A DNA stretch of 28,090 bases. Source: an archaeon (lineage in GTDB: Archaea > Iainarchaeota > Iainarchaeia > Iainarchaeales > GCA-2688035). A program made the translations under genes and the position numbers. The stretch is from positions 1-28,090 of the forward strand of contig DATDTD010000081.1 in the NCBI GenBank assembly GCA_035290965.1. The letters run 5' to 3'. The notes under the pieces are model-generated. The model had not been told where the DNA came from and searched no databases. It saw only the letters and a program-made list of their open reading frames with translations. Shown one piece after another: positions 14,451 to 15,697 of this stretch (position 1 is its first letter; the number at the start of each line of letters is the position of its first letter).

Positions 14451-14452
14451 CC

Positions 14453-14460
14453 TTTTTTTT
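14453..14460 (+). terminator. Oligo-T tract (T8) immediately downstream of the lon-N/IntN stop.
   Basis: The tract cctttttttt sits 3 nt after the stop. Archaeal terminators are oligo-T runs. Confidence 0.4.
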
Positions 14461-14614
14461 ATTGCAATAAAATCGCCCCCCCAATTTTTTCTGTCGACTC
14501 GAATTTTTTCGCTTTAAACCTTTTTACAAATAAATCTTTACTTTGGGTAAAAAGGATTTAATAGCTCCAAAATTCGCAAGACGTCTCAGAAAAAATTTTC
14601 GGAGGCGATTTGCG

Positions 14615-15697
14615 ATGAATAAAAAAATTGAAAACGGTTCAGCGGAAACCCGCTGTCTCGAAGCGAATTTAAACAGCAAAAATAGGCATAGTATGGTGCC
14701 TATGGAATTGGTAAACGAACAAGACATAATTGATACTTATTCTGAAGAGGATAAAATCTCCTGCCAAAAATACAAGGAATATCAAAAATTGATTCAAGAA
14801 AATCCAAAAATTGGCTACAAGCGCTGTGCAAAATCGCTTGGCATTTCTCAGGGCAGCACAAGATGGTGGCACACAAAAGGAACAAAGAAAGCAATTCCTC
14901 TGCCTTTGAAAACTGTCGCAAAGCTCAAAGAAGCAAATTTTTTGCCATTCAATACAAATCATAAACATTGTGAAAAAATATTGAGAATTTTGGGAACCTT
15001 GTTTGGGGATGGCGGTATTGACAAAAGGCTTAACACAATGGCTTTCATTTCTTCCATAAAAGAAGACGTTGATTTATGGGAAAAAGATTTGCTTGAAATC
15101 TTCCCATTTGTTTACAACAAAACGAACCTTGTGGAAGGCGGAGAATACGGGCATTCTTGGAATATGCGGACTTTTGACAGAAATATAATCAGGTTTTTTG
15201 TTGCTTTGGGAACCCCCGTTGGAAACAAAGTCTCAACAATTTACACTTTGCCAAAATATGTTTTTGACTTGCCAAGGCATTTGAAAATAGCTTTTTTGGA
15301 TGGCTTGCTTTCTTCAGAAGTTTCAGTGCCAAATTTTCGCGGAGACAAGCGCTGGAACTGGACGAAACGCTTTACAAATTTTGCCTTGGGCTTAAGCAAG
15401 ATTGATGCGCTTGAAGAACAGCATAGGAAGCATCTTGCTGATTTGAAGAAACTCTGCGCTTCTGTTGGTTTAACTTGCACGCCAAACACGAGGAAAGACA
15501 TAAGCAAAATAACCCTGCGAAAAGATGGGCACAAGAGCTGTTGCTACAGAATCTTCTTCCAGACTCACTTTGAAAAAGTAATAAAATTCAACGAAACTTT
15601 TCTGCTTCGCTATGCAACAGACAAGAAACAGAGGCTTGAAGAAGAAATAAAAAAAGCGCACGAATACAAAGAAGGCACGACTGCTCGCCCTTTGTAA
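14615..15697 (+). CDS. Free-standing double-motif LAGLIDADG homing endonuclease.
   Basis: The ATG at 14615 has GGAGG 9 nt upstream. Motif 1 is ILRILGTLFGDGGID (14990..15016) and motif 2 is KIAFLDGLLSSE (15293..15319), about 100 aa apart. There is an HTH-like stretch GYKRCAKSLGISQGSTRWW. Its frame differs from both Lon fragments. Confidence 0.75.
   Translation: MNKKIENGSAETRCLEANLNSKNRHSMVPMELVNEQDIIDTYSEEDKISCQKYKEYQKLIQENPKIGYKRCAKSLGISQGSTRWWHTKGTKKAIPLPLKTVAKLKEANFLPFNTNHKHCEKILRILGTLFGDGGIDKRLNTMAFISSIKEDVDLWEKDLLEIFPFVYNKTNLVEGGEYGHSWNMRTFDRNIIRFFVALGTPVGNKVSTIYTLPKYVFDLPRHLKIAFLDGLLSSEVSVPNFRGDKRWNWTKRFTNFALGLSKIDALEEQHRKHLADLKKLCASVGLTCTPNTRKDISKITLRKDGHKSCCYRIFFQTHFEKVIKFNETFLLRYATDKKQRLEEEIKKAHEYKEGTTARPL

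Follow-up and report, generated by a model that had tools for sequence, protein, structure and literature searches.

[quoted passage not shown]

Fractured genes have been described from ocean metagenomes, mostly in phage-like DNA, by Dassa, London, Stoddard, Schueler-Furman and Pietrokovski (2009; PMC2677866). The endonucleases of these published loci are GIY-YIG or Vsr-like, types not known inside inteins; the spacers measure 27–51 nt and the endonuclease gene often overlaps that of the C-terminal intein half (IntC). The same study predicts that gene fracture might likewise be caused by LAGLIDADG and HNH genes, and contains no LAGLIDADG example (PMC2677866). The origin of split inteins from contiguous ones that bear an endonuclease has so far been argued mainly from models and from such phage-like metagenome fragments, with endonucleases unrelated to intein-resident ones. 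The Lon inteins of Pyrococcus are known and have been studied (PMC3906313; reference 84 of PMC4031507). Only two DPANN genomes were included in a 2023 intein survey, and a literature search of incomplete coverage returned no description of a split Lon intein or of a fractured gene whose free-standing endonuclease gene is of the LAGLIDADG type, and no split inteins in DPANN beyond Nanoarchaeum PolB.

The lonB locus of the window, meaning the whole stretch of 28,090 nt analysed here, is an archaeal, LAGLIDADG-type fractured gene, a layout which in the literature searched was previously known from phage-like DNA but not with this endonuclease type or from archaea. On the sequence comparisons given below, it is likely that a trans-splicing split intein is combined here with a probably active, free-standing LAGLIDADG homing endonuclease, and that the arrangement arose by fission. 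The host is a small, uncultured DPANN archaeon, and the locus lies in an archaeal chromosome region with a Lactamase_B-family gene upstream of lonB and a DUF373 gene downstream, and no tRNA genes were found within the 28,090-nt window.

Positions 13428–17859 hold four ORFs, three on the plus strand and one on the minus strand. The LonB N-extein (13428–14051, plus strand) comprises 208 aa with Walker A and a membrane hairpin, ends in ...GDVRHDPLQ, matches the LonB model TIGR00764 (E 1.6e-59) and is colinear with intein-free LonB proteins. It is followed by IntN, the split intein's N-terminal half (14052–14450, plus strand), with 132 aa and a TAA stop at 14448–14450. A 164-nt non-coding spacer (14451–14614, plus strand) then carries stop codons in each of the three frames, a T8 tract at 14453–14460, a BRE/TATA-like AAAAAGGATTTAATAG at 14549–14564 and GGAGG at 14601–14605, nine nucleotides ahead of the ATG at 14615 which opens the free-standing LAGLIDADG homing-endonuclease gene (14615–15697, plus strand, 360 aa). 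A preliminary description of the DNA had read the T8 tract, the non-coding gap and the GGAGG-N9-ATG in just this way. The stop codon of the endonuclease gene is abutted by a membrane-like ORF of 207–212 aa on the minus strand (15698–16336), which is followed by a divergent intergenic region (16337–16434, plus strand) with a TATA-like ATTATTTTAA located 22–31 nt 5' of the IntC ATG. IntC (16435–16557, plus strand) contributes 41 aa with blocks F and G, ends in ...ILVHN and is joined to the LonB C-extein (16558–17859, plus strand; 433 aa and a stop), whose sequence opens with SGGLGTP; Walker B, the AAA lid and the Lon_C protease domain all lie in this part, which matches TIGR00764 (E 4.9e-198) and Lon_C (E 1.1e-33). 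Gene finders begin the 474-aa IntC-LonC product at 16435. The whole element measures 2,506 bp (14052–16557) and is located at a conserved HDPLQ/SGGLGTP site, the slash here and below marking the insertion point.

No two of LonN-IntN, the endonuclease ORF and IntC-LonC share a reading frame (their coordinates mod 3 are 0, 2 and 1, respectively), and IntC-LonC is a separate gene 737 nt downstream of the endonuclease gene. At least 24 contigs, obtained independently from different samples and with different assemblers, show this same order of genes (products of 340, 360, 207 and 474 aa, the third encoded on the minus strand), and this recurrence indicates that the layout is not an assembly artefact. 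The endonuclease was thus correctly described at the outset as an independent gene, and the alternative named alongside, that it might prove to be in frame with IntN and IntC, is contradicted by the three frames and the spacer stops. That sequencing or assembly indels have broken up what is really one in-frame intein, or that the endonuclease ORF is a decaying remnant, is extremely improbable: metagenome assemblies can carry indels, and the endonuclease genes of three related loci (L006, L027 and L035) are indeed broken by frameshifts, but each frame between the endonuclease gene and IntC has 11–16 stops and an ORF of the opposite strand lies there as well, the independent contigs all show an identical structure, the layout recurs in 50 species-level loci, and the endonuclease shows a dN/dS of 0.12 at a synonymous divergence of 0.6.

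With regard to the intein, the splicing residues are all present in the window, namely Cys1, the block B motif TPEH, the terminal ...VHN and Ser+1, which is the set expected of a class 1 intein. Among related loci the terminal Asn and Ser+1 were found in all 74 of 74 and the block B TxxH in 54 of 61. IntN on its own gave weak matches to Pfam Intein_splicing and TIGR01445, and its motifs were read directly. When IntN and IntC were joined, the product aligned across both halves with the Mja KlbA mini-intein (E 7e-6, query residues 23–166) and, again across both halves, with the naturally split NrdJ-1 intein (E 1.3e-3), so that HINT-domain similarity spans the two pieces. Removal of the element in silico yields a 641-aa LonB, 85% identical over 99% of its length to intein-free LonB proteins of the same phylum. 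At least 120 intein-free, contiguous LonB proteins were listed, and those with a named source bore the label Diapherotrites, Micrarchaeota or simply archaeon. Two loci, L086 and L087, carry intein-free lonB alleles flanked, as in the window, by a Lactamase_B-family gene on the upstream side and DUF373 on the downstream side, and their junction peptide RAGSLLGDVRHDPLQ/ is identical to that of the window. The junction DNA of the L086 allele reads ...GATCCTCTACAA/AGTGGCGGCCTTGG... (also given as ...CGCCATGATCCTCTACAA/AGTGGCGGCCTTGGCACT...), and that of the window's own spliced lonB reads ...CACGATCCCCTTCAG/TCCGGAGGCCTTGGA....

The intein halves therefore lie on separate genes and their removal restores a colinear LonB, and the locus of the window is already a true split intein and not something halfway. 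LonN-IntN (340 aa) and IntC-LonC (474 aa) would be translated separately, after which the intein halves would associate and the LonB halves would be expected to trans-splice, giving a 641-aa LonB colinear with the intein-free protein. Since Walker A and Walker B end up on opposite sides of the break, Lon activity would be expected to require ligation.

The endonuclease ORF had been described as 360 aa in length with two LAGLIDADG motifs about 100 aa apart, and both quoted motifs were found exactly where they had been placed, with a spacing of 101 aa. Motif 1, LGTLFGDGG, covers residues 126–134 (nt 14990–15016) with the acidic residue D132, and motif 2, FLDGLLSSE, covers residues 227–235 (nt 15293–15319) with the acidic residue E235; the second is atypical, reading FLDGLLSSEVS with a Val where a Gly is usual. 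In the structure model the protein is predicted to adopt a double-motif LAGLIDADG fold, with two alpha-beta-beta-alpha-beta-beta-alpha half-domains packed through the two LAGLIDADG helices (residues 119–129 and 221–235, with ends at D132 and E235), each helix terminating, on its C-terminal side, in an acidic catalytic residue. Across 48 aligned family members D132 is invariant and E235 is kept in at least 90%. The HTH-like N-terminal region of the preliminary description likewise held up as a helical domain at about residues 33–106 (nt 14711–14932) containing the helix-turn-helix-like GYKRCAKSLGISQGSTRWWH. These residues form the most conserved stretch of the endonuclease family, and the HTH would serve the enzyme as a DNA-binding domain of its own.

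Comparison with Pfam LAGLIDADG_1/2/3, which had been proposed as a check, would have misled, since the endonuclease ORF at three lengths gave no match to these models even at E ≤ 10; its only Pfam trace was HTH_24 (E 0.16). Searches of PDB sequences with the single protein and with a 48-sequence family profile gave chance matches only. The endonuclease region of the NCBIfam model NF038162, an intein-containing RtcB model, was matched by residues 100–335 (E 1.4e-19), and residues 17–347 aligned with the in-frame endonuclease region of Thermococcus nautili LonB, its HTH included, at 33% identity (E 1e-40), with a similar match to the contiguous protein P0252. The LAGLIDADG assignment accordingly follows from structure, from NF038162 and from homology to the contiguous Lon intein, not from Pfam, and these support the 360-aa ORF being a monomeric, double-motif LAGLIDADG protein with an N-terminal HTH-like domain. 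Its start codon is uncertain, the candidates being TTG 14543 (384 aa), ATG 14615 (360 aa) and ATG 14702, which is M30 (331 aa). The NCBI annotation of the contig begins the gene at M30; the model shows residues 1–24 as disordered, and it is from about residue 33 onwards that the family is conserved.

The endonuclease ORF is under purifying selection, as judged from substitution rates. Between the window and its closest relative, L008, the two endonucleases are 88% identical in amino acid sequence, and the Lon parts give a dN/dS of 0.09–0.10, next to the 0.12 of the endonuclease; over the 14 closest pairs, to which the comparison of synonymous divergence extends, the dN/dS of the endonuclease ranges from 0.05 to 0.13 in two-piece and three-piece forms alike. 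Synonymous divergence between the window and L008 is 1.0–1.6 in the exteins, 0.88 in IntN, 0.60 in the endonuclease, 0.24 in the minus-strand ORF and 0.44 in IntC. DNA identity rises from 0.74 to 0.87 at the start of the intein and drops back about 170 nt inside the C-extein, a profile as expected for co-conversion, which such an identity step may reflect. In the pairs L050/L061 and L029/L034 the element is also less diverged at synonymous sites, and weakly so in L042/L083; L016/L017 show the opposite, with near-identical N-exteins and diverged inteins. The element is patchily present among close relatives, and syntenic intein-free lonB alleles exist. The lower divergence of the element together with its patchy presence points to movement independent of the host gene, and suggests a mobile element, with the reservation that few pairs lie behind this and that composition or constraint could partly account for it. 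The endonuclease would most likely cut intein-free lonB at the insertion site, upon which repair would copy in the whole element.

Selection of this kind may also be asked to support a different function, namely that of a domesticated, non-cutting LAGLIDADG protein kept by host selection and acting either as a WhiA-like regulator that binds DNA or as an aid to the expression or assembly of the split Lon. This is unlikely, as both catalytic acidic residues are retained at the frequencies given above, the same domain architecture is found in frame within contiguous inteins, and the empty sites in close relatives and the difference in divergence between element and flanks fit ongoing mobility. 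A probably active homing endonuclease is hence preferred.

To place the arrangement among its relatives, 5.8 billion proteins yielded 124 relatives of the endonuclease, nearly all free-standing, 320–390 aa in length and encoded by DPANN members of the Iainarchaeota/Diapherotrites, Micrarchaeota, Woesearchaeota and Nanoarchaeota. Among species-representative genomes, 119 relatives were obtained by scanning, from which 78 loci were kept, and the Lon, IntN, endonuclease and IntC modules were mapped on stop-to-stop ORFs at 86 loci, including the window and a few duplicates. The three-gene layout of the window was found at 50 of the 86, and at 33 the LonN, IntN and endonuclease modules were fused in one ORF with a separate IntC-LonC gene, which usually abuts or overlaps the endonuclease stop (by ATGA in L007, for example). 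The N side was cut off in the remaining three, and an endonuclease fused to IntC was found at none of the 86. Fully contiguous forms of about 1,100 aa were recovered by an exhaustive profile search as P0252, P0256, P0261 and P0263, the last being LonB of T. nautili (WP_042693108.1) with its intein at HDPFQ/C...KN/SGGLGTP. All four share the HDPxQ/SGGLGTP insertion point and homologous intein and endonuclease modules, and it follows from the shared Lon site and modules that the allele in the window belongs to a known intein family, in split and uncoupled form.

The most likely source of the endonuclease gene is a contiguous Lon intein that underwent fission, with an intermediate in which IntN was still joined to the endonuclease; the order would be contiguous intein, then IntN-endonuclease with separate IntC, then IntN, endonuclease and IntC as three genes. 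In a crude neighbour-joining tree of the endonucleases, clade II (Woesearchaeota/Nanoarchaeota) contains fused forms that are paraphyletic, with most of the three-piece forms in one nested group, and this pattern, along with end-to-end homology to in-frame domains, favours stepwise fission. Clade I of the same tree (Iainarchaeota/Micrarchaeota, including the window) is entirely three-piece. The latter observation sits well with another origin for the same present function, namely that a free-standing LAGLIDADG gene broke a pre-existing Lon mini-intein, with the IntN-fused and contiguous forms arising later by loss of spacers. It corresponds to route II of Dassa et al. (2009; PMC2677866), who predict gene-fracturing by LAGLIDADG genes, and many representatives of the wider family, about 370–410 aa long, look free-standing. 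We nevertheless regard such an invasion as improbable, because the homology of the endonuclease, HTH included, to in-frame domains at this Lon site, in Thermococcus as in the other proteins of about 1,100 aa, extends over the full length, because the clade II fused forms are paraphyletic with the three-piece forms mostly nested, and because no Lon mini-intein without an endonuclease was seen among the loci examined. Stepwise fission therefore remains the preferred origin. The preliminary description had taken the locus for an intermediate between contiguous and split inteins. This stands in so far as the arrangement was proposed as a link by Dassa et al. (2009), but the locus is itself a true split intein, and an arrangement stable under purifying selection in about 50 species-level genomes is not a fleeting one.

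The minus-strand ORF at 15698–16336, which had been passed over in the preliminary description, is called by gene finders on all of the identical contigs and has no family match. It is common only to the window and L008 (80% amino acid identity, dN/dS 0.48, dS 0.24). As a conserved part of the element it was rejected, being found in L008 only and not being homologous to the ORF in the same position of L001. In the three-piece loci the gap between the endonuclease and IntC varies from −52 to 3,375 nt, and such gaps contain unrelated ORFs, which encode an AAA_14/DUF4143 ATPase, a reverse transcriptase, TPR proteins and Zn-phospholipase-C-like proteins. The fractured lonB locus is evidently being pushed apart by insertions. 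A further reading, and a rather doubtful one, is that the uncoupled element acts as a stable self-mobilising cassette which accepts cargo in the gap between endonuclease and IntC, so that homing into lonB spreads unrelated genes among DPANN genomes, the membrane-like ORF of the window and the gap genes just named being the cargo observed; the separation of the endonuclease from the intein frame would be what enables it to take up cargo.

The endonuclease would be made from its own start codon and probably from its own archaeal promoter. The spacer at 14451–14614 is 91% identical to that of L008, and AAAAAGGATTTAATAG lies about 50–65 nt ahead of the endonuclease ATG; from this we infer that the gene may have a promoter and a terminator of its own, as the preliminary description had it. 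The GGAGG of the window is CGAGG in L008, and SD-like motifs precede only a few of the window's genes. The IntN stop is followed by T8 in the window and by T5CT3 in L008. Runs of seven or more T are common, with about 50 on the plus strand in the 28 kb, and several other window genes have one right after the stop; a run of five or more T at most 30 nt from the IntN stop was found in 13 of 48 three-piece relatives against a background of 13%, a mild enrichment. The T8 tract is therefore a plausible archaeal terminator but no conserved feature of the family, so that co-transcription is possible in many relatives. In several of these the genes overlap by 4 nt, suggesting co-transcription with translational coupling there. 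The ATTATTTTAA ahead of the conserved IntC ATG is kept in L008 and would be the candidate promoter of IntC; many genes of the window likewise show a T-run just past the stop and a TATA-like box 22–31 nt ahead of the ATG. A scan for sigma-70 promoters and hairpin terminators gave counts equal to those in shuffled controls, with nothing in 14451–14614, its consensus being bacterial and the host archaeal. In an archaeal host it is TATA/BRE boxes and oligo-T tracts that matter, and the bacterial scan is beside the point. Taken together, the signals would fit three separate transcription units and prove nothing.

A single Lon site shows what is apparently the whole series, from contiguous inteins through the IntN-endonuclease fusion with IntC and the three-gene form to genes separated by cargo, together with intein-free alleles. 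The lonB family thereby offers a testable system for homing by a free-standing, intein-type endonuclease, for its retention and for the order of the breaks. The same family supplies naturally split inteins, with Cys, Ser or Thr at position 1 and Ser at +1, which may suit protein ligation.

Among described systems, the monomeric archaeal LAGLIDADG enzymes PI-PfuI, I-DmoI and I-Tsp061I differ from the window protein in that sequence identity is only 12–18%, and in that the latter has an extra N-terminal HTH and lies outside any intron or intein reading frame. The Lon inteins of Thermococcales (PabLon, PfuLon and T. nautili LonB) are closer, sharing the site HDP[LF]Q/SGGLGTP, homologous splicing blocks and a homologous endonuclease with its N-terminal HTH region, at the 33% identity noted for T. 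nautili; they are, however, single, in-frame, cis-splicing inteins of about 470 aa, whereas the window has three separate genes. Cyanobacterial DnaE and Nanoarchaeum equitans PolB resemble the locus in having IntN and IntC halves split at the canonical position of endonuclease insertion, with trans-splicing expected. In both of these the halves are at distant loci with no endonuclease left (PMC2677866; PMC4031507), whereas the window still has its halves side by side and keeps the endonuclease gene, which is conserved. The greatest likeness in layout is to the fractured genes of Dassa et al. (2009), where the host gene likewise exists at a single locus as two genes on the same strand that keep their original order and orientation, with the split-intein halves internal. 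From the published GIY-YIG or Vsr-like type with its phage-like context the locus departs in that its host is a cellular DPANN archaeon, it lies in a chromosome region, the enzyme is a LAGLIDADG protein homologous to intein-resident domains, and the spacers measure 164 and 737 nt, with an unrelated opposite-strand ORF within the element.

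A second split intein was found within the LonC half at three of the related DPANN loci that were compared with the window (L023, 7230–10348; L039, 6164–9239; L040, 6902–10088), with its insertion site at ...TEPVP|CDFVLV. At these three loci a single ORF encodes the C-terminal half of the first intein, a 71-aa stretch of Lon, the N-terminal half of the second intein and a second endonuclease, and is followed by a separate gene for the C-terminal half of the second intein and the remainder of LonC, so that LonB is encoded as three extein pieces. The second endonuclease carries additional C-terminal helices. 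The endonuclease type of the window, including its HTH region, also occurs in the in-frame inteins of two proteins recovered by the profile search (P0273 and P0286), the host proteins of which are approximately 1,040 aa and look, by eye, like DEAD/Hef-type helicases. Many representatives of this endonuclease type of approximately 370–410 aa appear to be free-standing, and further fractured genes carrying it may therefore exist.

With regard to the endonuclease ORF of the window, the NCBI annotation of the contig begins it at M30 (14702; HLD59281.1, 331 aa), while other gene finders place its start at the ATG at 14615, giving 360 aa; disorder is predicted for residues 1–24 of this longer product. 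The cargo in the endonuclease-to-IntC gap varies from genome to genome (L012, 3670–4965; L018, 6002–6745; L023, 5981–6814; L027, 5038–5904; L035, 5403–6710, minus strand), with examples including a reverse transcriptase (RVT_1), an AAA_14/DUF4143 ATPase, a TPR protein and Zn-dependent phospholipase-C-like proteins. Within the intein element of the window lies a membrane-like ORF of 207–212 aa (15698–16336, minus strand), which is convergent with the endonuclease gene with a spacing of zero. This ORF is common only to the window and its closest relative, L008 (80% amino acid identity, dN/dS of 0.48). At 0.24, its synonymous divergence is lower than that of any other part of the locus, and the ORF is therefore either weakly constrained or recently acquired.

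Upstream of the element, two ORFs (11897–13249; 123 aa, plus strand; 317 aa, minus strand) separate the Lactamase_B-family gene from lonN. The 317-aa ORF shows an HTH-like segment at its end, and other genes occupy this position in L086 and L087, the intein-free syntenic loci. It should also be noted that several genome bins with this DPANN-type locus are labelled as Chloroflexi or Methanosarcinales (L022, L050, L051, L053, L056, L063, L069, L074, and L080), which is probably due to errors of binning or labelling.

At the insertion site, Ser+1 is encoded by TCC (16558–16560) in the window's allele, which bears the intein, whereas the intein-free alleles of L086 and L087 use AGT or AGC, and the Gln codon just before it is different as well (CAG against CAA). 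These could be target-site differences or could have arisen by chance. HDPxQ is followed by Ser in 31 ORFs, including a few alleles that lack the intein, and by Cys as the first intein residue in thirty loci. In twelve further loci (L042, L050, L053, L057, L061, L065, L066, L068, L071, L075, L077, and L082) the first intein residue at this junction is Thr which, to our knowledge, is rare in this position among described inteins.
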